Notes: generated by a model not told the origin, from the sequence alone. A stretch of 64,000 nucleotides of DNA from Deltaproteobacteria bacterium (GCA_007130885.1 SLRQ01000042.1:1232-65231), one strand, 5' to 3'. Shown: positions 1,924 to 17,772, counted from the stretch's first letter. Made by a program: numbers and translations.

Positions 1924-1926
1924 GAT

Positions 1927-2391
1927 CTAGCCCTCGTCCACGAGATCTCTGTATGAGGTGAACGGCCCGAGCTCTCTCACGCGGGCAGTGGTCTCGTTGA
2001 CGATCTCCGACCACTTTCGTCCTTCCGACGCGGATACCCACGAGAAGGTCAACCGGTCGAGGTCAATTCCTAGAAAGCTCAATGTCTCGCGAAAAACCGC
2101 GAACCGGCGGCGGGCATGATAATTCCCGGCGGTGTAGTGACAATCGCCGGGATGACAGCCGCTGACTATTACGCCGTCCGCGCCTCTTTCAAAGGCCTTT
2201 ACGACGAAAAGGGGGTCGATGCGTCCGGTGCAGGGCAAGCGGACGATCCTTACGTTCGGCGCCATCTGTATACGGCTGGTGCCGGCCAGGTCGGCACCTG
2301 TGTAAGTGCACCAGTTGCACACGAACGCGACTATCCTTGGCTCGAAAGCCTCGCCCTCACTGCTGGGCCTTGCCGCTGTGGCCTCATTCAT
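1927..2391 (-). CDS. flxD: MvhD/FlxD [2Fe-2S] subunit
   Basis: FVCNWCTYTGADLAG, RLPCTGRID, GCHPGDCHY and WVSASEG are MvhD family motifs. Confidence 0.93.
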   Translation of the reverse strand: MNEATAARPSSEGEAFEPRIVAFVCNWCTYTGADLAGTSRIQMAPNVRIVRLPCTGRIDPLFVVKAFERGADGVIVSGCHPGDCHYTAGNYHARRRFAVFRETLSFLGIDLDRLTFSWVSASEGRKWSEIVNETTARVRELGPFTSYRDLVDEG

Positions 2392-2416
2392 CCTTGCGTC
2401 TCCATCTCGCGCTTAT

Positions 2417-4435
2417 CTACAAAGCGTTTATTGCCGCGAAGATCTGCGCGTCCGTGAAACCTTCCAGTTCTATGCTCTTGGAGGGGCAGGCTACCTGGCA
2501 GCTACCGCATCCCTGACAGACGCCTTCGTTCACTTCAGCTATCACCTTCTCGACCTCGCCGCTTCGGTTCAGCACCTCATATCGTTCCACCGCTCCATAC
2601 GGACAGGCGCGCTCGCAGTGGAAGCAACCGGAACAGGTTACCTTGTCGACTCCCGCTACCGTGGGCTCTCGTTCGAGCCGCTCCTTCGAGAACATCCCCA
2701 GAACCTTGGATGCGGTGGCGCTGGCCATTGCGACCGAGTCGGGTATGTCGCGCGGGGCCTGGCAGGCTCCCGCGACGAAAACCCCGGCCGTATTGGTATC
2801 GACAGGCCGCAGCTTCGGGTGAGCTTCGTTAATGAAGCCGTGCCCGTCGTAGGAAACGGACAGCTTTTGGGCCAGTGACTCGATGCCGGGCTGTGCCTGC
2901 ATGGCGGTGGCCAGCACCACCATGTCCGCGTCTATCTCCATTTGCTCGCCCGACAGCGTATCGAAGCCGGTCAGCCGGACCTTCTCGCCCTCGCGCTGGA
3001 TGCTGGAGACGCGGCCGCGGATGTACTTCGCGCCGTCTTCCTCGATCGCGCGGCGTACGAACTCGTCGTAACCTTTTCCGCCGGCGCGTATGTCCATGTA
3101 GAAGACTATGGCTTCTCCATCGTGGACCTTATGCCGGTAAAGCATGGTGTGCTTGGCCACATACATGCAGCAAAGCTTGGAGCAGTACTCGATGCCCTTG
3201 GATGGCTCTCGGGAGCCGATGCATTGCAGGAATACCACGCGCTTGGGGACCTTGCCGTCGGAAGGACGCACGATCTCTCCGCCGCTGGGTCCGGAAGCGG
3301 AAGCAATTCGCTCGAACTGCATTCCGTCGATTACGTCGGGGACCGTCCCGTAACCGTACTCTCCATATCCCGTTATCCCCTTGCGCGTTTGCTCCTTGCC
3401 TATGGAGTAGAGCTGATATCCGGTGGCGACGACGATCGCACCGACCTTTTCGGTGACAAACGTGTCTTCCTGCTCGAAGTCGATGGCGTCCCGCCCACAG
3501 GCCTCGGCGCACCTGCCGCACGCGGCCTTGGCCTTCTTCTTCTGCATGCCCTTGATTCGAAGGCAGTTCTCACGGTCTATGACCGGTATGTTGGGAACTG
3601 CTTGCGGGAAAGGCACATAGATGGCGGTTCGGTTGCCGAGCCCCGCGTCGAACTCGCTGGGAATCTTCTTCATTGGGCAGACGGACTGACATTCGCCGCA
3701 TCCGTTGCAGCGGGTCTCGTCCACGCCGCGAGCCTTCTTTCGAATCTTGACCGAGAAGTTCCCGATGTAGCCGTCCACCGATTCGATCTCGCTGTAGGTG
3801 AGCAGCTTGATGCGGGGGTGCTGGTGTACTTCGACCATGCGTGGCGTGAGAATGCACTGTGAGCAGTCAAGGGTGGGAAAGGTCTCCGAGAGCCTGCTCA
3901 TGTGCCCGCCGATAGACGGCTGCTTTTCCACCAGCACGACCTCACGGCCGCCGTCGGCCATGTCTAGGGCGGCTTGAAGCCCGGAAATGCCCCCTCCTAT
4001 TACGAGGGCACGCCGCTCCAGCGATATACTGATGGGTGCGAGAGGGGAGTTTCTCTTAATCTTCTCCGAGATGAACCGCGTAAGATCGATGGCCTTTGCC
4101 GTTGCGGCGTCGCGATCCTCGTGAATCCACGAACACTGCTCCCGGATGTTGGTCATCTCGCAGAGATAAGGGTTGAGCCCTGCCCCTTCCGTTGCTTTGC
4201 GGAAGGTTTTTTCGTGCATGTGCGGTGAGCACGCCGCGACTACCACGCCGGTAAGGTTCTTCTCGGCGATGGCCTCCTTGATGAGGTTCTGGCCGGGGTC
4301 CGAGCACATGTACTTGTAGTCCACGGCGTGAACTACGCCGGGAAGCTCACCACATGCGTTGGCTACCGCTTCACAATCGACAGTGCGGCCGATGTTCTCA
4401 CCGCAGTGGCAGACGAAGACACCGATGCGTGCCAT
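2417..4435 (-). CDS. hdrA: Heterodisulfide reductase subunit A (FAD, electron-bifurcating)
   Basis: RIGVFVCHCGENI, ACSP, NIREQCSW, GGGISG FAD motif, TFPTLDCSQCIL, YCSKLCC, FYMDIRA and C-terminal ferredoxin motifs. Confidence 0.96.
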   Translation of the reverse strand: MARIGVFVCHCGENIGRTVDCEAVANACGELPGVVHAVDYKYMCSDPGQNLIKEAIAEKNLTGVVVAACSPHMHEKTFRKATEGAGLNPYLCEMTNIREQCSWIHEDRDAATAKAIDLTRFISEKIKRNSPLAPISISLERRALVIGGGISGLQAALDMADGGREVVLVEKQPSIGGHMSRLSETFPTLDCSQCILTPRMVEVHQHPRIKLLTYSEIESVDGYIGNFSVKIRKKARGVDETRCNGCGECQSVCPMKKIPSEFDAGLGNRTAIYVPFPQAVPNIPVIDRENCLRIKGMQKKKAKAACGRCAEACGRDAIDFEQEDTFVTEKVGAIVVATGYQLYSIGKEQTRKGITGYGEYGYGTVPDVIDGMQFERIASASGPSGGEIVRPSDGKVPKRVVFLQCIGSREPSKGIEYCSKLCCMYVAKHTMLYRHKVHDGEAIVFYMDIRAGGKGYDEFVRRAIEEDGAKYIRGRVSSIQREGEKVRLTGFDTLSGEQMEIDADMVVLATAMQAQPGIESLAQKLSVSYDGHGFINEAHPKLRPVDTNTAGVFVAGACQAPRDIPDSVAMASATASKVLGMFSKERLEREPTVAGVDKVTCSGCFHCERACPYGAVERYEVLNRSGEVEKVIAEVNEGVCQGCGSCQVACPSKSIELEGFTDAQIFAAINAL

Positions 4436-5334
4436 CAGCCAACCTCCGTTGCCGCCGCGCTCTCACCTTCGCGAGGCCCGGGTATGCGAGAAATAAACGA
4501 CGCCGTGCTGACAAAGTGGCGTCCAAGACCGAGGGCTACGTGGTCCTGCCCCAACGCCAGACCGACGAGCTGTGAAAGGTATATGACAGGAATGTCCATC
4601 CCTCCTTCGCTGCGCCGGGCTATTGCCTTCTGCCTGAAGTCCAGGTTCGAGTGACACATTGGACAAGCCACGACCAATACATCCGCGCCTGCCCCGCGTG
4701 CGTCTTCCAAAATAGTGCGGGACAAACGAACGACCGATGAGGTTCTCGATAGAGAAAACCCTCCTCCGCAACAGTCCAGCCGCCGGTTCCAGCTCACCGG
4801 CTTGGCGCCGGTGGCCTTTACGACTGTTTCCATCATGGTGGGCGCTTCGACATCGTCTAGATCGTTCAGCTCCGGAGGCCTGACCAGTAGGCAACCGTAA
4901 TAGCAGGCAACCTTGATGTCCTCGAGCGGACGCTTTGCTTTCTCACGTACCTTGGGTGCCAGCTCCGCCAGGAGGCGCACCAACGATATCGGGCGTGCCG
5001 TTCCAACAGACCGACCTATGGCTTTCTCCACGGCCGCGCCGGTGGCCGGATCATTGTCCACGGCTCTGCGCGCCGCGGCCAGCCGGCTGTAGCATGCCGC
5101 GCAGGGAGCCAGTATCTGCTCGTGGCCTTGCTCCGCGGCAAGGGCCAAGGTGCGTGCCGGCAGCGCGACTCCTAGTAGATGGTTTGTCGCGTGCGCGGAC
5201 GTTGCTCCGCAACAAGCCCAGTCGTCGATTTCATTGATCTCAACGTCGAGTGGCCCAGTGATTACGCCGAGGCTCTCGGCGTACTCCCGTGCGGTTGCGT
5301 GCAGGGAGCAGCCGGGGAAGTAGCCTATCTTCAT
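4435..5334 (-). CDS. hdrB: Heterodisulfide reductase subunit B (CCG domains)
   Basis: YFPGCSL, WACCGA, CYYGCLL, CCGGG, ACPMCHSNLD. Confidence 0.95.
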   Translation of the reverse strand: MKIGYFPGCSLHATAREYAESLGVITGPLDVEINEIDDWACCGATSAHATNHLLGVALPARTLALAAEQGHEQILAPCAACYSRLAAARRAVDNDPATGAAVEKAIGRSVGTARPISLVRLLAELAPKVREKAKRPLEDIKVACYYGCLLVRPPELNDLDDVEAPTMMETVVKATGAKPVSWNRRLDCCGGGFSLSRTSSVVRLSRTILEDARGAGADVLVVACPMCHSNLDFRQKAIARRSEGGMDIPVIYLSQLVGLALGQDHVALGLGRHFVSTASFISRIPGPREGESAAATEVG

Positions 5335-5951
5335 GCGTTCTCCGCTCCTTCCGTGCCCGGATTCTGCTGCGCGGTGGTAGTGCTGGTTGAGTCGGACTCA
5401 TGCCGGGTGCATGCATCGAAGATCCGCCGAATCTCTTCAAGGCCCTGAATACGAGAGGGCGCCAGAGCAAGCTTTCCGCGGCCCAGCATGCCCGGAGCCG
5501 CCATGACGTCGGCGAAAAGCGCACCGCTCCGCATCTTGTAGCTCATTATGAGCCCCATCTCGAACAACCTGCCGGAGCGCTGAATCTGCTTGAGAAACGC
5601 GTTGTGGAATGCTCTGATGTTGCGAGGAGGCTGCGCGGCTCCCTCGTTCAGGGCGGTCTCACGAAGGCAGTCGATGATGCGCGCGGGATCGCAGCTGTTC
5701 GGGCACCTCGCGGTGCAAGTCTCACACGTAAGACACAGCCATATCGACTCGCTGGAAAGAAGCTGTTCCCTATCGTCGAACTGCAGCATGCGCAGGACGT
5801 CGTGAGGTCTAAGGCTGGTTTCTACCGCCATGGGGCATCCCGCGGAGCATTTGCCGCATTGGTAGCAGGTCGCGGGGTTCAAGCCGGTCTTGCGGCGCAC
5901 TTCTCCAGCCAACGTGGCGGGGGCTGCTGACTCGGGTATCGACATGCCCAT
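5331..5951 (-). CDS. hdrC: Heterodisulfide reductase subunit C
   Basis: CYQCGKCSAGCP and IWLCLTCETCTARCP; first gene of the hdrCBA operon, overlapping the hdrB start. Confidence 0.94.
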   Translation of the reverse strand: MGMSIPESAAPATLAGEVRRKTGLNPATCYQCGKCSAGCPMAVETSLRPHDVLRMLQFDDREQLLSSESIWLCLTCETCTARCPNSCDPARIIDCLRETALNEGAAQPPRNIRAFHNAFLKQIQRSGRLFEMGLIMSYKMRSGALFADVMAAPGMLGRGKLALAPSRIQGLEEIRRIFDACTRHESDSTSTTTAQQNPGTEGAENA

Positions 5952-6248
5952 CCTCTCGCTAACTGTTCAGTTCCTCTAATTCGCGAACGCCTTTCCATGG
6001 ATAATCATTCCGGACGCCGCACTTGATGATTGTCTACCAGAAGTCACTCCTGGAGTGAACCCTTTTCTTATTAAGGTTGCACTCTTTCTTGCTTCCGTAA
6101 GTCACGGAACGTTGGAGCCGGGCTCTTTATTGCTCTTTGGAGGCCGGCATCGCTGCTGGTCGCTTCGTTCAGTAGGGCAAACAGCCTGCGCGCGACTGGG
6201 CGTAACCGGCGGAAAGTACGACGTTTTTAGCGTGAGTAAAAATTTCTC

Positions 6249-6277
6249 TTGACTTGAGGAGACGCGGAAGCTAGGAG
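6249..6277 (+). promoter_or_regulatory. Possible sigma70-type promoter of rex-hyd operon
   Basis: TTGACT (6249-6254), 17 bp, TAGGAG (weak -10), directly upstream of the Rex-like boxes. Confidence 0.35.
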
Positions 6278-6279
6278 TG

Positions 6280-6314
6280 GTGTGAAGCGTTGCACAGCGT
6301 GAAAACATTCACAG
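6280..6314. promoter_or_regulatory. Two tandem Rex operator-like palindromes
   Basis: TGTGAA-gcgt-TGCACA (6281-6296) and CGTGAA-aaca-TTCACA (6298-6313) each match the Rex core TGTGAA-N4-TTCACA with one mismatch. They end 10 bp before the rex ATG. Confidence 0.75.
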
Positions 6315-6323
6315 TGACCCTGG

Positions 6324-6965
6324 ATGATGTCCACACCAAAGAAAACAGTCAGCAGGCTCAGTATGTATCGGCGGCTTCTTCAGGCGGAGCTCGACCGGGG
6401 CGTATCGAACATTTTCTCCCACAATCTCGCTTCGCTTGCGGGATCGACGGCGGCCCAGGTCCGGCGTGACTTGACCTACATAGGATGCACCGGCAGCCCT
6501 AAGACGGGATACCCCGTATCGGAGCTGCGGGACGCCATCGGCAGGTGCTTGAGCCCGAACGGGGAGGAACGACTCGCGCTGGTTGGGGTGGGGGACCTTG
6601 GGCGAGCGATTCTCTCTCGCTTCAGGGGCAGGCAAGGGCACTTGTCGATTACGGCTGCTTTCGACACCGATATCAGCAAGACGGGGAGAGTTACGCACGG
6701 GTGTCGGTGTTACTCGATGTCCGAGATCGAAGATGTCGTCAGGCGGGAAGGCATCGTGGCGGCTATTCTCGCGGTGCCCGCGGATGAAGCGCAGGGTGCC
6801 GCCGAGACGCTGGCGATGGCCGGTGTGACCGGAATCCTGAACTTCGCACCGGTGTCGCTTCGGCTGCCACGAAACGTGCATGTCGAAAATAACGATTTGA
6901 CCATGGCAATTGAGAAGGTCGCTTTTTTTGGGCGGGAAAACCACAACGCGAAACGGAAACAGTAG
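6324..6965 (+). CDS. rex: Redox-sensing transcriptional repressor Rex
   Basis: RLSMYRR, AAQVRRDL, GY wing, GVGDLG Rossmann motif, GILNFAP. Confidence 0.95.
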   Translation: MMSTPKKTVSRLSMYRRLLQAELDRGVSNIFSHNLASLAGSTAAQVRRDLTYIGCTGSPKTGYPVSELRDAIGRCLSPNGEERLALVGVGDLGRAILSRFRGRQGHLSITAAFDTDISKTGRVTHGCRCYSMSEIEDVVRREGIVAAILAVPADEAQGAAETLAMAGVTGILNFAPVSLRLPRNVHVENNDLTMAIEKVAFFGRENHNAKRKQ

Positions 6966-6980
6966 AAACGAGGTGGCTTC

Positions 6981-7472
6981 GTGAAAGAGTCCGCGAAGAA
7001 GGTTAAGGCGATTTTAGCGAAATATCCGGATTCAGGTCGGGATGCATTGATACCGATACTGCAGGACATACAGGACGAACTGGGATACCTGCCGACGTCC
7101 GCGATAATGCAGGTGGGGGCGCATTTGGCACTCCCCTCGAGCAAGATCTACGGCGTGGCGACATTCTACAACCAGTTTAGATTTCAGCCGAAGGGACGAA
7201 ATCATATTACGATTTGTCGGGGCACGGCTTGCCATGTCAAAGGTTCGGGTAAGCTGCTCGAGAACGCTGTTGCGACGCTGAAGATCAAGCCCGGTCAAAC
7301 CAGTCGTGACAAGCTCTTCAGCTTGGAAACGGTAGCCTGTATGGGCGCTTGTGGGTTGGCTCCGGTGATAACGGTCAACGATGAGTTCAACGCAAAGGCT
7401 TCACCGGCGAAGCTCAATCGGCTTGCGCGGTGCTGCAAGGACGAGATCACGCAAGAACGGGAAAACAGCTAG
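6981..7472 (+). CDS. hydC: NuoE-like [2Fe-2S] hydrogenase subunit (HydC/HndA)
   Basis: GVATFY, CRGTACHVKG, ACMGACGLAP. Confidence 0.92.
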   Translation: MKESAKKVKAILAKYPDSGRDALIPILQDIQDELGYLPTSAIMQVGAHLALPSSKIYGVATFYNQFRFQPKGRNHITICRGTACHVKGSGKLLENAVATLKIKPGQTSRDKLFSLETVACMGACGLAPVITVNDEFNAKASPAKLNRLARCCKDEITQERENS

Positions 7473-7579
7473 CGCTTTACTATTCTTGTTGTCAATGAGG
7501 CGGCGAAACGCAAGGCCTGGGCTTGGCGATGGCTAGAGGCCGAAATCAGCGCCGCTGACGAGAGGCAGGAGTTCACACA

Positions 7580-10500
7580 ATGACGAAGAATACACCATCC
7601 AACACAGCTGAAAACTGCTGGCCGGAACCGAGCCCTATCCATGATGATTTATTGAACTGGATGCCCGCCGGCCCGCTTGCCGCCGCGCGCGCCGAGGGTA
7701 AGAAAGCAATTAGAGCGGAGCTGTCGCGGCTTCGTCGCGAAAGCGTTTCAAAGCCGGTAGTGTTTTTGGGGACCGGGACCTGCGGGCTGGGAGCCGGTGC
7801 CGCGAAGACGCTGGAGGCCGTTCGAGATTATGTGGAACAGGGTGGACTGGATGTGGATGTCGTGGAGGTTGGGTGCATAGGTTTATGCTCCGAGGAGCCC
7901 ATTCTTGATGTGCAACTTCCAAGAAAAGCTAGAATCAGCTTCGGCTCCGTCACTGTGACCAACTTAAAGGACGTGCTCGACGGGGCGTTGAAAGAGGATT
8001 TGTCGAGCATTCCGAAAGCAGAAATACTGGGGCAGTTTAGGGGCACGGGCGAGACCTGGGATGGAGTGCGATTCATCGATGAGCACCCTTTCATGGTCAG
8101 GCAGCGCAGGGTGGTGCTTGCCGCTAGTGGGATAATCGATCCCACCAACATCGATGAGTACATTGCTCTGGGTGGCTATTCCGCTTTGGCCAAGACACTT
8201 CGTGGAATGACTCCCATCGAAGTTTGCGATGAGGTCGAGAGTAGCGGGCTGCGTGGGCGTGGCGGAGGAGGTTTTCCAGCAGGCAAGAAGTGGAAGTTCG
8301 CTCTCGGGGCCGAGTCTGATCGCAAGTATCTGATTTGCAATGCGGATGAAGGAGATCCCGGAGCCTTCATGGATCGCGCGGTGGCGGAGAGCGATCCTCA
8401 CCGTCTCATCGAAGGCATGCTCATAGCCGCGTACGCAATCGGTGCTTCCAAATCGTATATTTACATTCGGGCCGAGTATCCCTTGGCCATCGAGCGTCTC
8501 AGATCGGCCATCGTCCAGGCACGCGAGTACGGTCTCGTTGGTGAAAATATCCTGGACAGTGGCGTCAACGTCGACATCGTCATCAAGATGGGGGCGGGCG
8601 CGTTCGTGTGCGGAGAGGAAACCGCGCTCATCCACAGCATCGAAGGCAAGCGAGGCATGCCTCGACCTCGGCCACCGTTTCCCGCCGTTCGAGGTCTCTT
8701 TGGTAAGCCGACGATAATCAACAATGTGGAGACACTGTCGAATTTGTCTCTCATTCTCGATCGGGGCGCTGAATGGTTTGCCGGGATGGGCACCGAAGGC
8801 TCAAAGGGCACAAAAGTGTTCGCCCTTTCGGGCATGGTCAACCGAACCGGTTTGCTCGAGGTCCCGATGGGTACCACCTTGAGGCAGGTAGTCTATGAGG
8901 TTGGGGGAGGTATACCGAACAATAAACCGTGCAAAGCTGTGCAAATCGGGGGGCCGTCCGGCGGTTGTGTTCCGGAAGCCCACCTCGATATTCCCACTGA
9001 TTACGAAGCCCTAAAGGAGTTCGGAACCATCATGGGATCCGGGGGGCTCGTAGTGGTCGACGATGGTACTTGCATGGTGGACTTTGCGAAGTTTTTCATG
9101 GAGTTCATCCAATCGGAGAGCTGCGGCAAGTGCATACCGTGTCGCGAAGGCACAGGTCGCATGCTAGAGATTCTCGAGGCGTTGGGGCGTCAGCGAAAGG
9201 ATGAGAAGGAACTCGACGCCCTCCTACGGATTCAAGGCATCATGGGTCTGGAAAAGCTTGCGAGGACAATCAAGGATACGAGTCTCTGCGGGCTTGGCCA
9301 GACTGCTCCTAATCCCGTACTTAGCACCCTCAAATGGTTCCGTGAGGAATACGAAGCACACGTATTCGAACGAAGCTGTCCGGCCGGTGCTTGCAAGGAC
9401 CTGGTTGGCGCTCCGTGTCAGACCGGTTGCCCGGTTGGAACTGAAGCCTGGCGTTATGTTGCGCATATTTCCAGAGGCGAGTACCCAGAAGCGTATGAAG
9501 CCATTCGCTCGGCGAACCCTCTTCCCTCGACTTGCGCTCGCGTGTGTCATCATCCATGCGAATCCATCTGCCGCGCCGGCTCCACCGGCAGTCAGCCGAT
9601 TGCGATTCGTAGCCTCAAGAGGTTCGTGGTCGATGCCGTGGAGCCGAGTTCATACAGCCCGTTGGTGCCGACTGTCGGCGAGGGTGCGAAGAGAGTTGCG
9701 GTCATTGGAGGAGGCCCCTCGGGTTTGACGGCTGCGCACAATCTGTCGCTGCTAGGTCACAAAGTGACAATTATCGAGAGGGAAGATCGACTGGGCGGCA
9801 TGTTAGTCGGTGCAATTCCAGCTTATCGCCTACCTCGCGAAGTTCTTGCGAAGGAGATCGATGCTCTGCTCAATGAAAACATCGAAGTGCGATATGGGGA
9901 AGTACTCGGCCGTGACATTTCTATCGATGGATTGATGGATGATTACGACGCCGTTTATGTCGCAACCGGGTCCCACAAGAGCAAGAGTCTCGACCTGGAG
10001 GGCGAGGACGCTAAAGGAATCTATCGGGGCATTGAGTTTCTGAACGCCCATAACCTTCAAGGCAAGGAGCTTGCTCGGGGCAAGGTTGGCGTAATCGGCG
10101 GTGGAAACAGCGCTATTGACGCTGCCAGAGTCGCGCTAAGGCAGAAACAAGTGGAGCAAGTCACGGTGTTCTATAGGCGAACCCGCGCGGAGATGCCGGC
10201 ATACGAAGAGGAGATAGAAGCCGGCCTCGAGGAAGGATTGGTAATCGAGGAACTAGTGTCTCCGCTTTCGGTGTCCGTAAAGTCGGGGCAGCTCGAATGT
10301 TTTCGATTGCAGCGTAACAAGCTAGGAGAGCCCGATGAATCAGGTCGCCGCAGGCCGGTGCCGATCGAAGGTTCAGAACTCGATGTCTCGCTGGACACTC
10401 TCATTGTGGCAATCAGCGAGCAGCCCGAGGAGACGGGCCTCGAGAAGTTGCGGCGTACTAGATGGGGCACCGTCGAAATAAACATGGAAAGCCACCTCAC

Positions 10501-10852
10501 CGACAGACCCGGTGTTTTTGCGGGTGGTGATGTCGTATCAGGACCGAGTACGGTGGTCGAAGCGATAGCGGCGGGTAAGAACGCGGCCAAAATGATCGAC
10601 AGGTACCTACGTAAAAAGGCGATGCGGGTACTTCCGAAGGTAGTGCTTCCAACTACTTACATTGCGCCGGTCGAAGACGATCTGAATGAAGATGAGACGG
10701 CGGAGCCCACGCGCGTTATTGCACCTCGAACTCAGGTTTCTGAAAGGACGGGATGCTTTGCCGAGGTGGAGCTTCCCCTCGAGGAGCGTGAAGCACTTTG
10801 CGAAGCGAGGCGGTGTCTGAGATGCGATCTGGATTTCACCCAGGCGGATTGA
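7580..10852 (+). CDS. hydB: NuoF-like FMN/NADH hydrogenase subunit (HydB) fused to a C-terminal GltD/NfnB-like FAD/NADP(H) oxidoreductase
   Basis: N-terminal thioredoxin-like FeS domain (GTCG...GCIGLCSEEP), GLRGRGGGGFP, NADEGDPGAFMDR, GGPSGG, ESCGKCIPCREG, SLCGLG. Then APCQTGCP...CARVCHHPCESIC, GGGPSG, GGGNSAID, YRRT, EARRCLRC. Confidence 0.9.
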   Translation: MTKNTPSNTAENCWPEPSPIHDDLLNWMPAGPLAAARAEGKKAIRAELSRLRRESVSKPVVFLGTGTCGLGAGAAKTLEAVRDYVEQGGLDVDVVEVGCIGLCSEEPILDVQLPRKARISFGSVTVTNLKDVLDGALKEDLSSIPKAEILGQFRGTGETWDGVRFIDEHPFMVRQRRVVLAASGIIDPTNIDEYIALGGYSALAKTLRGMTPIEVCDEVESSGLRGRGGGGFPAGKKWKFALGAESDRKYLICNADEGDPGAFMDRAVAESDPHRLIEGMLIAAYAIGASKSYIYIRAEYPLAIERLRSAIVQAREYGLVGENILDSGVNVDIVIKMGAGAFVCGEETALIHSIEGKRGMPRPRPPFPAVRGLFGKPTIINNVETLSNLSLILDRGAEWFAGMGTEGSKGTKVFALSGMVNRTGLLEVPMGTTLRQVVYEVGGGIPNNKPCKAVQIGGPSGGCVPEAHLDIPTDYEALKEFGTIMGSGGLVVVDDGTCMVDFAKFFMEFIQSESCGKCIPCREGTGRMLEILEALGRQRKDEKELDALLRIQGIMGLEKLARTIKDTSLCGLGQTAPNPVLSTLKWFREEYEAHVFERSCPAGACKDLVGAPCQTGCPVGTEAWRYVAHISRGEYPEAYEAIRSANPLPSTCARVCHHPCESICRAGSTGSQPIAIRSLKRFVVDAVEPSSYSPLVPTVGEGAKRVAVIGGGPSGLTAAHNLSLLGHKVTIIEREDRLGGMLVGAIPAYRLPREVLAKEIDALLNENIEVRYGEVLGRDISIDGLMDDYDAVYVATGSHKSKSLDLEGEDAKGIYRGIEFLNAHNLQGKELARGKVGVIGGGNSAIDAARVALRQKQVEQVTVFYRRTRAEMPAYEEEIEAGLEEGLVIEELVSPLSVSVKSGQLECFRLQRNKLGEPDESGRRRPVPIEGSELDVSLDTLIVAISEQPEETGLEKLRRTRWGTVEINMESHLTDRPGVFAGGDVVSGPSTVVEAIAAGKNAAKMIDRYLRKKAMRVLPKVVLPTTYIAPVEDDLNEDETAEPTRVIAPRTQVSERTGCFAEVELPLEEREALCEARRCLRCDLDFTQAD

Positions 10853-10935
10853 AAACGGCTGTTTCCAAGGTCGGTGGACCTCCCGGCTGACGATGTCGGT
10901 ACTGGGTCGAACACGGGAATCACGGAGAAGCAAAA

Positions 10936-12657
10936 ATGATTGGTATCGAAGCCAACGGACGAACTGTTGAAGCCAAAGCTGGAGAGACGATTCTATCCGT
11001 GCTGCGCAGAGAGGGAATTCACGTGCCTACTCTCTGTCACATGGAGGGGCTCGAGCCCAGTGGGGCCTGTCGCCTTTGCGTGGTAGAGCTGGAAGGGAGC
11101 GCCAACTTGGTGCCGGCTTGCTCGTTTCCCGTATCCGAGGGAATGAAGGTGCGAACGGGAACCCCGAAGGTGCTCGAGGCGAGAAAGACCATAGTAGAGC
11201 TGCTCTTGAGCAATCATCCCGATGACTGCCTCTACTGCTCGCGTAGTGGCAATTGCGATCTGCAAAAGTTGGCGGGAGACCTCGGTGTTCGGCAAAGGCA
11301 TTACCGAGAGCCTCGACCCAGCAGGGAATTGGACGTATCGAGCCCGTCCATAATCCGTGACCCGGCAAAGTGCATTCTCTGCGGTAGGTGCGTTCGTGTT
11401 TGTGAGGAGGTGCAGGCGGTTTCGGCGATCGACTTCACGGGGCGTGGGTCGCGCGCAATGGTTACTCCGGCGTTCAATTCCGGTCTCAATATGTCGAGCT
11501 GCATCAATTGTGGACAATGCGTGGTGGTTTGCCCAACAGGTGCCTTGGCCGAGAGATCGAGTGTTCAGGAGGTAATGGATGCGCTCTCAGATCCTGATTT
11601 GACGGTGATCGTTCAGCATGCACCGGCTGTTTCGGTTTCCTTGGCGGAGGAAGCAGGGCTGAAGCCCGCCACGGATGTAGACGGTAAAATGGTCGCTGCT
11701 CTACGGCGTATCGGTTTCGACCGCGTCTTTGATACCTCTTTTACGGCTGACCTCACAATTATGGAAGAGGGCAGTGAGCTGGTGGAGCGCGTCAACAATG
11801 GCGGGGTGCTGCCGATGCTGACGAGCTGCTCTCCCGGTTGGATCAAGTTCGTAGAAACCTTCTACCCTGAGTTCATTCCGAATGTATCGACCTGCAAGAG
11901 CCCACAGCAGATGTTGGGAGCGCTCGTAAAAAGTTTCTTCGCGGAAAGGGAACAACTCGATCCCAAGAAGATCGTCAGCGTTTCCATAATGCCTTGTACC
12001 GCCAAGAAGTTCGAGTGCAGCAGGCCTGAGATGGCTAATGATTATGTGCCGGATGTCGATTACGTTCTGACCACCCGCGAGCTTGGGCAGCTACTTCGCA
12101 TGTTCGGACTGGATTTGGCCTCACTCGAGCCGGAAGCCGCGGATTCACCATTCGGTGAGCGATCTTCCGCCGGAAAGATCTTTGGAGCATCTGGAGGGGT
12201 GATGGAGGCGGCGGTCAGGTCCGCTCACTATTTATTGACCGGAGAAGAACTCCAGAATCTCAAGATTCAGCCGCTCAGAGGGATGGCGGGAGTGAAGGAG
12301 TTGCGTGCAAATGTCGGTGGAGTTGAAATTGGTGCCTGCGTGGTAAGCGGTCTTGGAAATGCGAGAAATTTGCTCGACCAGATCAAGGTGGGACGCGACG
12401 ATTTGCACTTCATCGAGGTGATGACATGTCCGGGCGGTTGCGTCGGTGGTGGAGGACAGCCGATAGGAACCGAGCGAGATGCCGTGAAGTCGCGTATGGA
12501 GACTCTTTATCGAATAGACCGTGAGGAACAGCTTAGAGTTAGTCACAAGAATCCATGGGTGCTGCGACTATACGAGGAGTTCCTTGGTAAGCCTTTGAGC
12601 CATAAGAGCCATAAGCTGTTGCACACCACCTATGACAAGCGACACGTGCCGCTATAA
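10936..12657 (+). CDS. hydA: [FeFe]-hydrogenase catalytic subunit, group A3
   Basis: N-terminal 2Fe-2S, His-ligated 4Fe-4S (HPDDCLYC), two 4Fe-4S; H-cluster motifs TSCSPGW, MPCTAKKFE, EVMTCPGGCVGGGGQP. Confidence 0.96.
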   Translation: MIGIEANGRTVEAKAGETILSVLRREGIHVPTLCHMEGLEPSGACRLCVVELEGSANLVPACSFPVSEGMKVRTGTPKVLEARKTIVELLLSNHPDDCLYCSRSGNCDLQKLAGDLGVRQRHYREPRPSRELDVSSPSIIRDPAKCILCGRCVRVCEEVQAVSAIDFTGRGSRAMVTPAFNSGLNMSSCINCGQCVVVCPTGALAERSSVQEVMDALSDPDLTVIVQHAPAVSVSLAEEAGLKPATDVDGKMVAALRRIGFDRVFDTSFTADLTIMEEGSELVERVNNGGVLPMLTSCSPGWIKFVETFYPEFIPNVSTCKSPQQMLGALVKSFFAEREQLDPKKIVSVSIMPCTAKKFECSRPEMANDYVPDVDYVLTTRELGQLLRMFGLDLASLEPEAADSPFGERSSAGKIFGASGGVMEAAVRSAHYLLTGEELQNLKIQPLRGMAGVKELRANVGGVEIGACVVSGLGNARNLLDQIKVGRDDLHFIEVMTCPGGCVGGGGQPIGTERDAVKSRMETLYRIDREEQLRVSHKNPWVLRLYEEFLGKPLSHKSHKLLHTTYDKRHVPL

Positions 12658-12747
12658 GAGACGTATCGTCTTGTGAAGTTGTTTGCGGCGATTATGTTCA
12701 ACTGTGCACCACGTGAATTTGGCTCATGACCAAAAACGAGAAGAATC

Positions 12748-13161
12748 ATGGAAAGCAAACAAAAGGTACTAATCGTTGACGATGACGAGGATCTGCTCGA
12801 GCAGCTTACTCAGATTCTCGAAGGTGCCGGCTACGAAGTCCGCACGGCGGCAAGTCAGGCCGAGGGCGAAGAGATGTTGCTCTCCATTCGTCCGGATTTG
12901 GCTGTCTTTGATCTCATGATGGAGGAGATGGACAGCGGATTCATGCTGTCACATTACCTCAAGAAACTATACTCTGACGTTCCAGTCATATTGCTCACCG
13001 CGGTGACATCGTCAACCGGCCTGTCGTTCCAAGAGTCATCCACTGAAGCCCGTAGCTGGGTGAAAGTAGATGAGGTTCTCGACAAGCCGGTCCGAGCCGA
13101 GCAGATCAAATCGGTAGTGGCTCGCCTATTGAGCGAGGTGAAAGGAGCGCCCGACGGGTAG
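12748..13161 (+). CDS. Single-domain response regulator (receiver only)
   Basis: LIVDDD, FDLMM (phospho-Asp), LLTA, KP; no output domain. Confidence 0.9.
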   Translation: MESKQKVLIVDDDEDLLEQLTQILEGAGYEVRTAASQAEGEEMLLSIRPDLAVFDLMMEEMDSGFMLSHYLKKLYSDVPVILLTAVTSSTGLSFQESSTEARSWVKVDEVLDKPVRAEQIKSVVARLLSEVKGAPDG

Positions 13162-13180
13162 GCGGCCCATTGAGGCATTT

Positions 13181-15193
13181 ATGTCGATCCCACAGCTGGT
13201 CAAAACAATCAAGGAACGCTGTCGAGTTTGTTATACTTGTGTACGTGAATGTCCAGCTAAGGCCATACGAATCGCCGAGGGGCAGGCAGAGGTCATTGCC
13301 GGTAGATGCATAGGGTGTGGAAGCTGCGTTTGTGTGTGCGGACGTGGCGCCAAACAGGTTCTTGATTGCGCCGGAGGCGTGAGAACCCTGATGGACGGGA
13401 CTGCCCCCGTCGCGGCTCTTTTGGCACCCACTTTCCCAGTCGAGTTCAGGGAACGCTCGGCCGAGGAAGTGGCGGGAATGCTTCGGGCCATTGGTTTTGC
13501 GAGCGTTCATGAAGTCGGCTTTGGTGCCGACCTTGTAGCGTTGCGTTATCGCCGGCTTCTTACCGAGAAAGAAGGAAGGCGTTATATCGCGTCAACCTGT
13601 CCCGCCGTTGTCGGCTATGTTGAGCGCTACTATCCGGATCTCATCGACTCATTGGCCCCCATCGTTTCCCCGATGGTCGCAATGGCCCGGGCACTGCGAG
13701 CACTACATGGAGAAAAGCAGAAGTTTGTCTTCATAGGACCGTGTATCGCGAAAAAGGGTGAGGCGTCGGATGCAAACCTCCGGAAAGAGATTGACGCCGT
13801 ACTTACGTTCAACGAGCTCCGTACAATGCTTGATGAGGCCGCTGTGGATTGGGATGATGTTAGTCCTTGCGGCTTCGACCCACCTTTTGCGGGCCGCGGA
13901 GCCCTGCTGCCAATAAGCAGAGGGCTGCTTCATGCCGCGGATATTCGCGAAGATCTGGCTGAAAACATGGTGGTGGCGGCCGATGGTCGAGTCGACTTTC
14001 TCGAGGCGCTGAAAGAGTTCGAGTCCGGCGATCTTAGGGTTCGATTGTTGGAGGTGCTCGCCTGTAAGGGTTGTATATCGGGACCCGGCCTGCGGCTCGA
14101 CGAGCCGCTTTTCAGTCGACGCAGGAGGGTCAGTGAGTTTGTGCGCGGTAAGAAGTCTTCATTCGACTGGGAAGAATGGTCCAACACGTTGCGAGGACTG
14201 GTCGACCTCGATCTAAGTCGGGCTTACACTTGTCGGGATGCGCGAACCGACACGCCGAGAGATAACGAGGTTCGAAAGATTTTAATCCGCATGGGAAAGG
14301 ATTCGGAGGAAGAGGAACTCAACTGCGGCGCCTGCGGATACGAAACGTGCGGAGAGCACGCTGTGGCGATACTCGAGGGGCTGGCCGAGACCGAGATGTG
14401 CCTTCCTCATACAATCGAGCAGCTTCACAATGCGGTCGATGACCTGGCTGACTCGAATCGTCGTCTCGCAACCGCGAAGGAGGCGCTTATGCACTCGGAG
14501 AAGCTGGCGAACATGGGGCAGCTAGCGGCTGGGATTGCTCACGAGGTGAACAATCCATTGGGCGTGGTGTTGATGTATGCGCATCTCATGCGTGATGAGC
14601 ATACTAACGACCCCGAAATTGTGGAAGATCTCGAGACCATCGTCCGAGAAGCGGATCGCTGTAAGAAGATTGTCGCGGGCTTGCTCAACTTTGCTCGACA
14701 AACATCCGTTGTTCGTCAGAGCACCGATGTCAGGGGGTTGGTAGAGAGAACGTGCAGGTCTCTACCTCCACCGGAGGGAGTCCGCGTCGCCTTCGAGCAG
14801 AACCTAGAGAATCCCTTGGCCGAGGTCGATGGGGATCAAATTGCCCAGGTATTGACGAACCTGCTGTGCAACGCATACGACGCCACCGTCGATGGCGGCG
14901 GTGAGGTCACTATCAGCACCTCCGGTAATGACGAAGTCTTGGTGCTGAAAGTGACCGATACGGGTAAGGGGATTTCAGCTGAGAATTTGCCGAAGATCTT
15001 CGAGCCGTTCTTTACTACAAAGCAGATCGGTAGGGGTACGGGGCTCGGGCTGGCTGTAACCTATGGAATCGTCAAGATGCACAAGGGGGAGATTGATGTG
15101 CAATCAAACTCGGATGAGACCAAAGGACCAACGGGGACCGAAGTCACCGTGACGCTGCTTCGCAACTCAGATCCTGATGTTGGAGAGGCATGA
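13181..15193 (+). CDS. Sensory (group C, histidine-kinase-linked) [FeFe]-hydrogenase-like protein fused to HisKA/HATPase
   Basis: [12 protein letters not shown] ferredoxin, variant H-cluster motifs ASTCPAVV / GPCIAKKGE / [23 protein letters not shown] FeS domain, AHEVNNPL H-box, N/G1/F/G2 boxes (NLLCNA, DTGKG, FFTTK, GTGLGL). Confidence 0.9.
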
Positions 15194-15194
15194 A

Positions 15195-16349
15195 ATGAAT
15201 GAGCATCTACATTTGCTGATTGTAGATGACGAGCCAGGCATGTTGGCGGGCGCTGTCCGTGCGCTCAAGGATTATCGAGTCCAGACACTCGATGAATCGG
15301 AAGAAGTTCGCTTCGAAATCGCAACTGCGGAGAACGGTGAGGTCGCGCTGCGCAAAATCGCAGGCGAATGCCCGGATATTATTCTGCTAGATTATAAATT
15401 GCCCGGAGTGAACGGATTGGAGGTATTGCAGAAAGTTACGGAACAGTACCCCGACGTCTTGACGATAATGATCACTGCCTATGCCACCCTGGAGACGGCG
15501 GTGCTTGCCACTAAGCAGGGGGCTTACGATTTTGTTGCAAAGCCTTTCACTCCCGCGGAGTTGAAGAACGTGGTGCAAAAGGCGGCTAGGCATATTCTGC
15601 TTGCTCGACGTGCAAGGCAGCTTGCGGAAGAACGCCGGAGAATTAGATTCGAGTTTATTTCCATTCTCGCCCATGAACTCAAGTCACCGCTGAATGCCGT
15701 CGAAGGATATCTCAGAGGTATGAGGGATCACGTTGCGGGTGAAGAGCTTGCCGCTTATGACAAGTCCATTGCGAGAAGCCTGCTCCGCGTCAACGGTATG
15801 CGAAAGTTGATCTACGATCTCCTGGACTTGACCAGAATCGAAAGCGGAGAGAAGAAGCGAAACCTGACTAGAGTCAGTGTTACTGATATAGCCAAGGAAG
15901 CATTGGCGAACCTGAGCGAGGATGCCCTCGGGCGAGATATTGAAATGGAGTTGGAGTCTACTGCAAATGTTGAGATGCAAGCGGACCGCGGTGAGCTGGA
16001 AATTATAATGAATAATCTTGTTTCCAACGCAGTGAAATACAACACAGATGGAGGTCGAGTAGGCGTTCGTGTTCTCGCGGGCGAAGAGACGGTGATCATA
16101 GAGGTCGACGACACCGGCATCGGATTGACGGAAGAGGAAGCGGCCCGTCTCTTCAACGATTTCGTGAGGATCAAGAACGAAAAAACTCGAGGCATACTCG
16201 GGTCCGGATTGGGACTTGCCATTGTGCGAAAGCTCGCCTCCTTGTATGGAGGTGAAGTCTCCGTCGAGAGTACGCCTGATGAGGGCAGCAAGTTTACAGT
16301 GGTATTGACGCGTTATCCCCGGAGTGAGGCTGCCTCGATGGGTAGTTAG
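15195..16349 (+). CDS. Hybrid receiver-histidine kinase
   Basis: LIVDDE, LLDYKLP receiver; AHELKSPL, NLVSNAVKY, DTGIG, GSGLGL. Start taken at ATG 15195 after GGAGAGG. Confidence 0.9.
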   Translation: MNEHLHLLIVDDEPGMLAGAVRALKDYRVQTLDESEEVRFEIATAENGEVALRKIAGECPDIILLDYKLPGVNGLEVLQKVTEQYPDVLTIMITAYATLETAVLATKQGAYDFVAKPFTPAELKNVVQKAARHILLARRARQLAEERRRIRFEFISILAHELKSPLNAVEGYLRGMRDHVAGEELAAYDKSIARSLLRVNGMRKLIYDLLDLTRIESGEKKRNLTRVSVTDIAKEALANLSEDALGRDIEMELESTANVEMQADRGELEIIMNNLVSNAVKYNTDGGRVGVRVLAGEETVIIEVDDTGIGLTEEEAARLFNDFVRIKNEKTRGILGSGLGLAIVRKLASLYGGEVSVESTPDEGSKFTVVLTRYPRSEAASMGS

Positions 16350-16352
16350 ACA

Positions 16353-17747
16353 ATGGTAGAAATTAAGCGAAAAGGAATAATCGAAGAAGATCAAATTTAC
16401 GAGACCCTCAAACGGGCACGTAGTCATGATTCGAGCATGGTTCGTGATATCTTGGCGAAGGGCAGGGCGCTAGAGGGGTTGGATGAGCAAGACATTGCGG
16501 TGCTGACCGGTGTGTCGGATCCAAACCTTCTAGCGGAGATGTTCGATGCGGCAAGAAATGTAAAGGATTTGGTGTACGGAAATCGGCTTGTGCTGTTCGC
16601 TCCGCTGTACATCTCCAACCTTTGCGGGAATGAATGCGTGTACTGCGCCTTCAGAGTGAGGAATACCGATGTCAAGCGGCGTGCGCTGGATCAGGAGGAG
16701 ATCGCGGATGAAGTAAGGCACTTGGTGTCTCAGGGTCACAAGAGGATACTGTTGGTGGCAGGAGAGGCATATCCACGAGAGGGCTTTTCCTACATCCTTC
16801 GTTCCATAGACACTATCTATGACTCCGCCCGAGGCCATGGTGAAATACGGCGTGCGAACGTCAATATTGCCCCGTTGACATCAGGCGAGTTCAAGCTTCT
16901 TCGTGAAGCAAGGATCGGCACTTATCAGTTATTCCAGGAAACCTATCATCAAGAAACCTATCGACAGGTGCATGTTTCCGGAAGGAAGATGGATTTCGAC
17001 TGGCGTATTTCAGCTATGGATAGAGCCGTGGAAGCTGGGATCGATGATGTCGGGATTGGCGTTCTTTTTGGTTTATTCGACTGGCGATTCGAGATTCTTG
17101 CATTGTTGCAACACATTCGGCATCTTGAGAGGAAGCACGGTATCGGGCCTCATACTATTTCCGTTCCACGACTCGAACCGGCGGTAGGTTCCGATATTGC
17201 GTCCCAACCTCCTCATCCTGTCTCCGATCTGGATTTTCGGAGAATTGTAGCGATTTTGCGGCTGGCGGTTCCTTACACGGGAATCATAATGTCAACACGC
17301 GAGAGTGCCGATATGCGCCGGGAGACTTTTGCTCTAGGCGTTTCACAGATATCGGCGGGAAGTCGCACCAATCCAGGGGGGTATGGGGCCGAGCGGCCGG
17401 ATGAGGCTCAGTTCTCGCTGGGGGATCATAGAAGCTTGGACGACGTGGTTAGGGATGTTGCTTCCCTTGGATACGTACCGTCGTTCTGTACTGCTTGCTA
17501 TCGTTTGGGAAGAACCGGCGGGGATTTCATGGATTTGGCCAAGCCCGGTCTAATCAAGACCCACTGCCAACCGAACGCTGTCGCTACATTTCAGGAGTTT
17601 CTTCTCGACTACGGGTCGCCGAGGACGCGCGAGGTGGGTCGAGAAACGATTGCAAGGGCAATGGAAGAGATGGATGGCGGTACCAGAAGAAAAACAGAAA
17701 GGATGCTAGGGCGCCTGAGAGAAGGGCGTCGTGATGTTTATTGTTGA
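16353..17747 (+). CDS. hydG: [FeFe]-hydrogenase maturase HydG (radical SAM)
   Basis: LFAPLYISNLCGNECVYCAF, YQLFQETY, GPHTISVPR, C-terminal auxiliary cluster SFCTACY...C (absent from ThiH). Confidence 0.95.
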   Translation: MVEIKRKGIIEEDQIYETLKRARSHDSSMVRDILAKGRALEGLDEQDIAVLTGVSDPNLLAEMFDAARNVKDLVYGNRLVLFAPLYISNLCGNECVYCAFRVRNTDVKRRALDQEEIADEVRHLVSQGHKRILLVAGEAYPREGFSYILRSIDTIYDSARGHGEIRRANVNIAPLTSGEFKLLREARIGTYQLFQETYHQETYRQVHVSGRKMDFDWRISAMDRAVEAGIDDVGIGVLFGLFDWRFEILALLQHIRHLERKHGIGPHTISVPRLEPAVGSDIASQPPHPVSDLDFRRIVAILRLAVPYTGIIMSTRESADMRRETFALGVSQISAGSRTNPGGYGAERPDEAQFSLGDHRSLDDVVRDVASLGYVPSFCTACYRLGRTGGDFMDLAKPGLIKTHCQPNAVATFQEFLLDYGSPRTREVGRETIARAMEEMDGGTRRKTERMLGRLREGRRDVYC

Positions 17748-17772
17748 TGGGATGGTATAGAGGAGTTGGCCG

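Follow-up and report, generated by a model that had tools for sequence, protein, structure and literature searches.

A GltD-like module in place of the ferredoxin-type domain of HydB in a group A3 [FeFe]-hydrogenase gene cluster

In canonical HydABC (T. maritima 7P5H, A. woodii 7Q4V and T. kivui 8A6T), a mobile 2x[4Fe-4S] domain of the B subunit, B3/B4, passes the low-potential electron on to ferredoxin. A Zn site formed by three cysteines and one histidine has been described in T. maritima HydB as the hinge on which this C-terminal 'bridge' domain swings (Furlan 2022). We analyzed a 64,000-nucleotide (nt) stretch of DNA (the window) from Deltaproteobacteria bacterium (GCA_007130885.1, SLRQ01000042.1:1232-65231), which carries a hydB::gltD fusion gene at 7580-10852. 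The HydA, HydC and HydB core encoded here are like those of canonical HydABC, but in the fusion protein the C-terminal 2x[4Fe-4S] domain is replaced by a module of ~480 amino acids (aa). An earlier note on this DNA had proposed that the enzyme links H2, NADH and NADPH directly, possibly without free ferredoxin. We tentatively rank this idea first, on the basis of the homology of the module to Stn/Nfn-Bfu enzymes and its site at the Zn hinge.

StnABC and NfnABC (8OH5, 9BOV and 9N5U) contain the same permuted, lysine-type YRR module and a BfuB-type core. The earlier note held that such relatives lack an H-cluster, and this is so; its comparison needs correcting in that their module is in the A subunit, whereas here it is in B. 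That A subunit is a HydA homologue without the H-cluster, with the module placed after its [2Fe-2S] domain and feeding NADPH electrons into the mid-potential entry. B3/B4 is still present in the B subunit of these complexes, to serve ferredoxin. The fusion instead has the module on B, at the low-potential exit, and its A subunit is a true hydrogenase. The large subunit of NfnAB/NfnSL (4YLF and 5JCA) resembles the module in fold and cofactors (266 bits; template-modelling score [TMt] 0.77-0.79), but NfnB has an N-terminal CxxC, a Glu cluster ligand and an NfnA partner, whereas the fusion protein has an aligned Lys and no NfnA gene in its cluster.

A GltD-like protein is also linked to an [FeFe]-hydrogenase in HydDB group A2, with a role left undetermined in that source (PMC5037454). 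The 'glutamate synthase-linked' rule of this group calls for a neighbor with a GltD domain but without a NuoF domain. We rejected group A2 as the family since the rule excludes NuoF-containing neighbors (PMC5037454), whereas the fusion holds GltD and NuoF domains in one protein and has a NuoE-like HydC besides. The Bfu definition of Schut 2022 requires a ferredoxin-type domain (IPR017896) in BfuB (PMC9304861); the fused proteins therefore fall outside it.

The fusion architecture to which the earlier note drew attention is real, but it is not new, being already in print in two works. Zheng & Huang 2024 (mSystems, PMC11406978) described, in silico only, a 'sub-type I BfuB' in which B3/B4 gives way to DPD_II (2x[4Fe-4S]) and a C-terminal FAD/NAD(P) domain (FAD, flavin adenine dinucleotide). 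They placed it in a group A3 hydABC cluster, postulated a new mechanism with a second FAD bifurcation center, and reported it from Hydrogenedentota and other phyla, spread by horizontal transfer. Matched to their verbal description rather than to their sequences, the fusion protein has the same architecture; the genome behind the window's copy has a RecA closest to those of Myxococcota/'Deltaproteobacteria' metagenome-assembled genomes (MAGs). The words NADPH, GltD and NfnB have 0 occurrences in the main text of PMC11406978. A Kiritimatiellia preprint (2026, bioRxiv 10.64898/2026.10.06.756941) reports a fused hydB in 163 genomes, 132 of which also have the unfused form, and its carriers include cultured strains; by description this is the same fusion, and the passages of the preprint concerned with it give no function or mechanism. 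These are the two works that describe the fusion in the full-text literature (subscription journals lie outside this coverage), where we found no biochemical or structural study of it. The protein is a further member of an enzyme class described in silico and biochemically uncharacterized.

Residue numbers below are those of the fusion protein, and nucleotide coordinates are those of the window. The open reading frame (ORF) stays open over 1090 codons on the plus strand, with no stops or frameshifts, and contains the following features:

7580-10852, plus strand: hydB::gltD fusion gene, 1090 aa, a single uninterrupted ORF
7616-7999, plus strand: N-terminal Cys (C13) and thioredoxin-like domain with C68, C99 and C103, the presumed [2Fe-2S] 'B5' site
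8234-8746, plus strand: NuoF flavin mononucleotide (FMN)/NAD(H) domain (Complex1_51K) with the bifurcating-type signatures GDPGAFMD and GAGAFVCGEE
8816-8959, plus strand: SLBB domain with GGPSG (Pfam SLBB 413-460)
9080-9361, plus strand: [4Fe-4S] 'B1' domain, C515/C518/C521/C570 (Pfam NADH_4Fe-4S 501-594)
9359-9394, plus strand: H594-x5-C600PAGAC605, 'B2'/Zn hinge motif, the final element in common with canonical HydB
9389-9640, plus strand: DPD-II type 2x[4Fe-4S] domain, C613/C617/C652/C656/C660/C664/K680 (Pfam Fer4_20 604-687)
9692-10576, plus strand: FAD Rossmann fold (GxGxxG 710-715) and NADP(H)-type Rossmann fold (GGGNSA 840-845, Y865-R866-R867) (Pyr_redox_2 705-999)
10802-10828, plus strand: C-terminal E-A-R-R-C1079-L-R-C1082-D, probably supplying the final two ligands of the FAD-distal [4Fe-4S] cluster; GltD layout permuted

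The Pfam domains follow one another in the order Complex1_51K (219-389), SLBB (413-460), NADH_4Fe-4S (501-594), Fer4_20 (604-687; DPD domain II in Pfam terms) and Pyr_redox_2 (705-999), and a Pfam search of all 1090 aa found no 4Fe-4S dicluster ferredoxin family. All the motifs that had been quoted for the protein were located: GDPGAFMD at 258, FVCGEE inside 338-347, GGPSG at 457 and H594...C600PAGAC605 in the core, and APC613QTGC617P, C652ARVC656HHPC660ESIC664 and YRRT (865-868) in the module. The fusion protein stays below the NCBIfam equivalog cut-offs (nuoF_fam, 470 vs 558.65; PRK12771, 440 vs 516), which is why public sources name its homologues only generically, currently as 'FAD-dependent oxidoreductase' or 'NuoF'.

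We aligned the window's protein with 119 full-length homologues, 64-76% identical to it, among the matches listed (n = 120). C68, C99 and C103 were present in 120/120 sequences and C13 in 113/120; these four residues are presumed to be the [2Fe-2S] 'B5' ligands of a Bfu-type HydB. Solved HydB/NfnB chains could be aligned from residue ~61 onward. The B1 cysteines C515, C518, C521 and C570 were invariant (120/120), as were H594, C600 and C605 at the hinge. GDPGAFMD, GAGAFVCGEE and GGPSGG were retained in 119-120 of the 120 sequences. Bifurcating beta subunits are distinguished from non-bifurcating ones by A/E and M near the NADH site, F near FMN, and GGPSG (Losey 2020, PMC7311640), and the fusion protein has A262/M264, F342 and GGPSG. 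Domains and signatures thus bear out the claim that a bifurcating-type HydB core is retained: the NuoF FMN/NAD(H) domain, SLBB, the B1 cluster, the N-terminal B5 site and the His/Cys B2/Zn site are all present, and the one Bfu-type HydB feature missing, by Pfam and by the end of homology at the hinge, is the C-terminal 2x[4Fe-4S] B3/B4 domain.

The exact swap point, at the Zn hinge, is new in this analysis. Against solved chains, the N-terminal ~610 residues scored 637 bits with T. sibiricus NfnB, 635 with A. woodii HydB and 628 with the A. mobile subunit. Homology to solved HydB chains stops at CPAGACKDLV (~residue 609), and homology to the GltD-like module of NfnA/StnC begins at residue 611. 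The last shared element, AH594VFERSC600PAGAC605KDLV, is a motif common to the B subunits of T. kivui, A. woodii, A. mobile and S. ovata (AH...KCPAG(A/V)C); the third Cys of the Zn-hinge site is probably C498. The GltD-like module starts seven residues past the His/Cys hinge motif and occupies the B3/B4 position of canonical HydB. Since C613, a putative ligand of the FAD-distal cluster, follows the hinge ligand C605 by only 8 residues, the exit cluster of the module would be tethered at the usual B3 site. A canonical relative from Hydrogenedentales (L003), encoded in a rex-hydC-hydB-hydA-hydS cassette, is 72% identical over the core and 66% over residues 59-608; past its equivalent CPAGVC motif it continues into two CxxCxxCxxxCP motifs. 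Domain search and alignments therefore agree with the earlier proposal that the ferredoxin-type B3/B4 domain was exchanged for a whole GltD/NfnB-like 2x[4Fe-4S]-FAD-NADP(H) module.

Among solved structures, the module was closest to Csac NfnA (its residues 102-567; 362 bits), T. sibiricus NfnA (337 bits) and S. ovata StnC (314 bits). Scores against NfnL/NfnB were lower (5jca_L, 266 bits; 4ylf_B, 265 bits), with GltD and DPD next. The alignment reaches the last residues, where ...EARRC1079LRC1082D pairs with ...EASRCLEC of Csac NfnA and with its StnC equivalent; the module is therefore permuted relative to GltD, and complete. The earlier note had overlooked this circular permutation. The permuted layout, PCxxxCP...CxxxCxxxC...FAD...NADPH...EAxRCxxC with a Lys at the FAD-proximal cluster, matches 9bov_A, 9n5u_A and 8oh5_C, and ..YRR(T/S)..EMPA as well as both GxGxxG/A motifs are common to the fusion protein, Csac NfnA, T. 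sibiricus NfnA and StnC. K680 aligns with StnC K170, and R750, the conserved Arg in YRLP, is equivalent to R201 of NfnB and R239 of StnC. Judged by these alignments, the module is of the Stn/Nfn-Bfu kind, nearest to the NADPH-entry module of StnC/NfnA; this Lys-type, permuted identity is likewise new in this analysis.

The putative ligands of the module are as conserved as those of the core. C613, C617, C652, C656, C660, C664 and K680 were found in 120/120 sequences and C1079 and C1082 in 119/120. By the DPD/NfnB ligand pattern, which we take to apply here, C613, C664, C1079 and C1082 would hold the FAD-distal cluster, and C617, C656 and C660, together with K680 (or C652), the FAD-proximal cluster. 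C652 (window 9533-9535), four residues before CxxxCxxxC, is an extra invariant Cys first noted in this analysis: Csac NfnA, T. sibiricus NfnA and StnC have no Cys at the aligned site. This family-specific residue may stand in for the Lys ligand of the FAD-proximal cluster or act alongside it.

Paired arginines at the end of the second Rossmann strand bind the 2'-phosphate of NADP(H). Y865-R866-R867 and both nucleotide-binding glycine motifs were present in 120/120 sequences, and Stn/Nfn-Bfu complexes have been found experimentally to use NADPH (PMC10482914, PMC11829005), so the YRR(T/S) motif and the homology to assayed enzymes suggest that the module uses NADP(H). It could instead bind NADH or feed another acceptor, which would make the enzyme an NADH-only hydrogenase with an accessory flavin domain. 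GltD-like modules do occur in many enzymes of unknown partner (4108 proteins of varied architecture at E<=1e-30), and the NCBIfam equivalogs all fall below cut-off for the fusion protein. We judge this improbable, however, as the invariant Y865-R866-R867 is identical to the motif of the assayed NADPH-dependent Stn/Nfn-Bfu modules.

The same residues bear on the postulate of Zheng & Huang 2024 that such a protein has two bifurcation centers, with a further acceptor such as ferredoxin binding elsewhere. The module is homologous to NfnB/NfnL, whose FAD bifurcates, R750 (120/120) is the counterpart of NfnB R201/StnC R239, and the invariant C652 hints at altered cluster chemistry. By contrast, the Glu ligand of NfnB is replaced here by K680 (120/120), as in StnC, where K170 ligates the FAD-proximal cluster and the FAD has been shown to be non-bifurcating (PMC10482914). 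The module also scores higher against the non-bifurcating NfnA/StnC than against NfnL/NfnB, and an NfnA-like [2Fe-2S]/FAD partner is not encoded in the hydrogenase cluster. The Stn-type lysine and the lack of such a partner make two bifurcation centers less likely, and we regard them as very improbable.

An AlphaFold2 model of the whole fusion protein, built from a 47-sequence alignment, had a mean predicted local distance difference test (pLDDT) of 81.1 and a predicted template-modelling score (pTM) of 0.58. In Foldseek searches, the N-terminal half matched Bfu B subunits (TMt 0.75-0.87) and the C-terminal half matched NfnA/StnC and NfnL/NfnB (TMt 0.77-0.79). None of the solved chains in the Protein Data Bank (PDB) copy that we searched spanned more than about half of the model (maximum TMq 0.45), so that copy holds no structure of this architecture.

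We regard it as evenly balanced, from sequence comparison, whether the fusion protein is the beta (HydB/BfuB) subunit of a ferredoxin-independent trimeric A3 HydABC whose low-potential arm ends in FAD/NADP+. The proposal draws on the precise swap, with HydB homology ending at C600PAGAC605KDLV and NfnA/StnC homology starting at 611; the retention of bifurcating-HydB marks in the core (113-120/120); the closeness of the module to the NADPH-entry modules of NfnA/StnC, and a K680 that matches the non-bifurcating Stn type; the short distance of C613 from the hinge ligand C605; the intact and conserved partners, with HydC, HydA, hydG and hydF in the cluster; the energetics given below, which are sensible; and the presence in the cluster of rex and a sensory hydrogenase, which would suit an enzyme coupled to H2 and to the redox poise of the pyridine nucleotides. 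In such an enzyme, electrons from H2 would enter at the H-cluster of HydA and reach FMN by way of the A clusters and B1; at FMN they would split between NAD+, reduced at that site, and a C1/hinge-side branch that would end in FAD and NADP+ in place of ferredoxin. Within the module, the chain would run from the distal [4Fe-4S] through the Lys-associated proximal [4Fe-4S] and FAD to the NADP(H) site. The net reaction, reversible, would be 2 H2 + NAD+ + NADP+ <-> NADH + NADPH + 2 H+. When the enzyme evolves H2, oxidation of NADH would be drawn along by the more reducing NADPH pool, a confurcation without ferredoxin. It is plausible, though we hold it with somewhat less than even confidence, that the NADP(H) pool replaces ferredoxin as the low-potential partner of a bifurcating/confurcating hydrogenase, one complex then taking on the work of both HydABC and Nfn. 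The two nucleotides would be obligatorily coupled, and ferredoxin would not be needed.

The physiological potential of NADPH is ~-380 mV. For the equilibria we took the values of -280, -414 and -500 mV from PMC9304861, with -280 mV used for NADH. The computed H2 pressures were ~145 Pa for NADH plus NADPH (mean -330 mV), 3 Pa for NADH alone and 15.5 kPa for NADH plus ferredoxin. Given an equilibrium at ~145 Pa, the proposed coupling would be useful at environmental H2 levels in either direction.

Several observations weigh against this coupled, ferredoxin-independent enzyme. By calculation, H2 at standard conditions (1 bar) can reduce NAD+ or NADP+ uncoupled, and thermodynamics thus does not demand bifurcation. 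T. kivui HydABC no longer bifurcated once B3/B4 had been deleted (PMC11829005), and the core may therefore simply be non-bifurcating here. The preference for NADP(H) over NAD(H) is read from motifs and homology only. The hinge (595-609) has a pLDDT <50, and with a pTM of 0.58 the model does not fix where the module stands with respect to C1 and FMN. The window's genome also encodes a classical NfnAB pair elsewhere (L084) and ferredoxin-linked enzymes, a gene content that does not compel a ferredoxin-free route. Within the full-text literature defined above, with subscription journals outside its coverage, we found no assays of this architecture.

The first two of these points lead to the main rival, a non-bifurcating hydrogenase with two independent entries, NADH at FMN and NADPH at FAD, and hence uncoupled NAD(P)H-linked catalysis. 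It owes its place to the loss of bifurcation that accompanies loss of B3/B4 in tested cases: besides the T. kivui deletion, the HydBs without B3/B4 of S. wolfei and S. aciditrophicus were non-bifurcating (PMC7311640). However, the core holds all three signatures that are absent from non-bifurcating beta subunits (Losey 2020, PMC7311640), and it retains the B5 and Zn-hinge sites that non-bifurcating homologues, as described in PMC9304861, lack. In addition, the fused clade nests beside canonical, B3/B4-bearing HydBs and not beside the non-bifurcating type. We consider the uncoupled enzyme unlikely, though it is the alternative to be taken most seriously.

The ferredoxin-independent HydABC proposed above would draw on partners encoded on the same strand, in the order rex-hydC-hydB::gltD-hydA-RR-hydS-hybrid kinase-hydG-like-hydF (RR, response regulator). 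The features around the fusion gene are:

6280-6314, plus strand: two adjacent Rex-box-like palindromes, just upstream of rex
6324-6965, plus strand: rex, redox-sensing (NADH/NAD+) repressor (PRK05472.2-4, 196.7 bits, cut-off 126; Put_DNA-bind_N and CoA_binding)
6981-7472, plus strand: hydC, NuoE-like [2Fe-2S] subunit, BfuC (2Fe-2S_thioredx, E 4e-48)
10936-12657, plus strand: hydA, [FeFe]-hydrogenase catalytic subunit (FeFe_hydrog_A6, 833.5 bits, cut-off 765)
12748-13161, plus strand: response regulator receiver (domain search)
13181-15193, plus strand: HydS-like sensory [FeFe]-hydrogenase fused to a histidine kinase (Fe_hyd_lg_C and FeS, HisKA, HATPase_c)
15177-16349, plus strand: hybrid response-regulator/histidine kinase (domain search)
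16353-17747, plus strand: HydG-like radical-SAM/BATS maturase (domain search)
17773-18975, plus strand: HydF, H-cluster maturase (domain search)

The adjoining HydA has an intact H-cluster site, as had been claimed: in addition to its NCBIfam score, it carries all three H-cluster motifs (TSCSPGW, MPCTAKKFE and EVMTCPGGCVGGGGQP). It aligned end to end with its best solved relatives, T. kivui HydA1 (609 bits) and A. woodii HydA1 (604 bits), and has the marks of group A3 (NCBIfam 'A6'), namely P1-P3, N-terminal [2Fe-2S]/[4Fe-4S] domains and NuoE/NuoF-type partners. TSCSPGW has Ser for the second Cys of C. pasteurianum CpI; we rejected this as a sign of a defective H-cluster because A. woodii HydA1, a characterized bifurcating hydrogenase, has TSCSPGW too.

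The two palindromes upstream of rex, GTGTGAAGCGTTGCACAG (6280-6297) and GCGTGAAAACATTCACAG (6297-6314), each have 3 mismatches to a Rex consensus. The window holds 4 Rex-box-like matches against 1.25 expected, and 4/100 shuffles reached 4, so as candidate Rex sites the palindromes are suggestive only. A promoter and terminator scan of 5900-19200 gave chance level only. The sole RNA-library run with words of the stretch, X10, yielded a 394-nt mismatch-free contig on hydC (7080-7473); on the fusion gene it gave ~40-nt mismatched pieces from conserved parts only, which speaks neither way on the expression of that gene.

We surveyed the fusion in other genomes by scanning one genome per species, which gave 378 related stretches; locus counts refer to the best 80 of these 378. 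At 77 of the 80 loci the gene was fused (69 full length, 8 cut by a contig end), at two it was unfused (L001 and L003), and at one it was cut before the junction. Among the 77 fused loci, HydC lay directly upstream in 70, with no room for it in six and a fragmented match in one (L051). The survey that had been suggested, of NuoF-GltD fusions beside hydA, found HydA directly downstream in 67/77, with no room in eight and none in two (L039 and L046). A Rex homologue was upstream in 51/77, a response regulator was downstream in 62/77 and HydS was downstream in 47/77, many loci being cut by contig ends. The RR-HydS pair travels with the fused hydrogenase cassette. The fused loci belonged to Planctomycetota (26), Myxococcota (13), Acidobacteriota (11), Lentisphaerota (7), Elusimicrobiota (3), Spirochaetota (2), Krumholzibacteriota (2) and five other phyla with one each, eight loci being without a phylum name; the fusion is thus spread over at least 12 named phyla.

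These counts also dispose of the suggestion that the gene is an assembly artefact or a dead gene fusion, which we regard as already refuted and of negligible probability. Nothing was found to support it beyond the setting in which it would arise, a metagenome-type assembly of 118 contigs. The same fusion recurs in 77 of the 80 loci from at least 12 named phyla with invariant junction residues, and the ORF is free of stops and frameshifts. Independent runs also bridge the junction (nt ~9395-9415): mismatch-free contigs cross it in X3 (9109-9566) and, from a separate study, in X5 (9333-9564). X4, from a second independent study, gave mismatch-free contigs over most of the gene, and none of its listed pieces bridges the junction. 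The runs holding the stretch are labelled as soda-lake, alkali-sediment or salt-lake metagenomes.

We then built a maximum-likelihood tree (quick LG+G4) of NuoF core residues 180-609 with 156 rows, comprising 72 fused loci, the window and 83 canonical sequences, two of them paralogues that the genome of the window encodes. We excluded every locus whose core match fell short of 400 residues, as well as one unclassifiable locus (no room) and L073 (stop in the match). A single branch separated all fused cores from the canonical ones, so that the tree needs just one change of state; support for this branch was not strong, with a Shimodaira-Hasegawa-like approximate likelihood-ratio test (SH-aLRT) value of 81. 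Shuffling the fused and canonical labels never gave so few changes of state (0/500). With the tree rooted on the paralogue L081, the sister group consisted of 37 canonical HydBs from Bacteroidota, Hydrogenedentota, Fermentibacterota and others. Of the 40 genomes most closely related to that of the window, only G004 (same family, 76% identical) had the full-length fusion, and the RecA of the window's genome had its nearest named relatives, at 74-79%, in Myxococcota/'Deltaproteobacteria' MAGs. These observations fit a gene fusion that happened once and then spread horizontally; that the fusion seems to have arisen only once is new in this analysis.

An exhaustive search with the module only returned 4108 proteins at E<=1e-30, with very varied architectures. 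The module was 40-47% identical to relatives outside its own family, many of which are laid out like NfnA/StnC, as proteins of 1100-1250 aa in which the module occupies ~102-580. Five more distant NuoF::GltD fusions (P0131, P0152, P0165, P0226 and P0272) are 1034-1130 aa long, with modules 42-45% identical; some of them have weak or missing N-terminal domains. Judged by these matches, the NuoF::GltD architecture reaches beyond the family studied here.

The two fused loci without hydA, L039 (1877-7243) and L046, come from Krumholzibacteriota and a 'Deltaproteobacteria' MAG. At these loci the fused gene follows genes for a formate-dehydrogenase-type molybdopterin subunit and NuoE; a response regulator is still present 3' of the fused gene at both loci, and a HydS-like gene too in L039. 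The gene order suggests that in some genomes the fused B subunit may also serve a formate dehydrogenase; this occasional pairing, at 2/77 fused loci, is new in this analysis.

The assembly that holds the window (G000; 3.78 Mb, 118 contigs, 97.8% complete) encodes a second [FeFe]-hydrogenase cluster, in B-A-C order, on contig C21 (L081:4855-8783, minus strand). In the HydB of this cluster (P0124, 722 aa), two [2Fe-2S]-like domains stand at the N-terminus and GGPAG takes the place of GGPSG; past its CPAGRC hinge motif the protein runs into a Pro/Glu-rich low-complexity tail, without B3/B4. The cluster recalls 'sub-type III' (BAC, double B5) as described by Zheng & Huang (PMC11406978). The same genome has an Fdh-type Bfu cluster adjoining formate-tetrahydrofolate ligase and CdhD. 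On contig C111 (L083:1321-5775, minus strand), a 1484-aa protein combining HdrA-like FAD domains, GltD-like Fer4_20/Pyr_redox_2 and ferredoxin motifs adjoins HdrB/C-like genes.

Within the window, a divergent Hdr/Mvh-like cluster lies upstream of the hydrogenase genes (1051-5951, minus strand):

5331-5951, minus strand: HdrC-like protein
4435-5334, minus strand: CCG-domain HdrB-like protein
2417-4435, minus strand: HdrA-like FAD/FeS protein, 672 aa
1927-2391, minus strand: MvhD/FlpD
1051-1923, minus strand: further FeS protein

Beyond hydF, at 19107-21005 on the plus strand, lies a 632-aa acetyl-CoA hydrolase/transferase with a C-terminal GNAT acetyltransferase domain fused to it.

Bfu-type enzymes are central to anaerobic energy conservation, and the mechanism of their bifurcation is still debated. 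The fusion protein offers a natural variant for a clean test of whether the FMN/FeS core can bifurcate to a non-ferredoxin acceptor or performs only simple NAD(P)H-linked catalysis, and the cultured carriers named in the 2026 preprint, Kiritimatiella glycovorans among them, make assays feasible. Models of H2 metabolism that score the fused genes as ferredoxin-dependent bifurcating hydrogenases may be wrong. If the proposed function is true, this would be the first Bfu enzyme with a low-potential branch ending in a flavin and a pyridine nucleotide, and it would tie the NADH/NADPH poise directly to ambient H2, with an equilibrium near 10^2 Pa.

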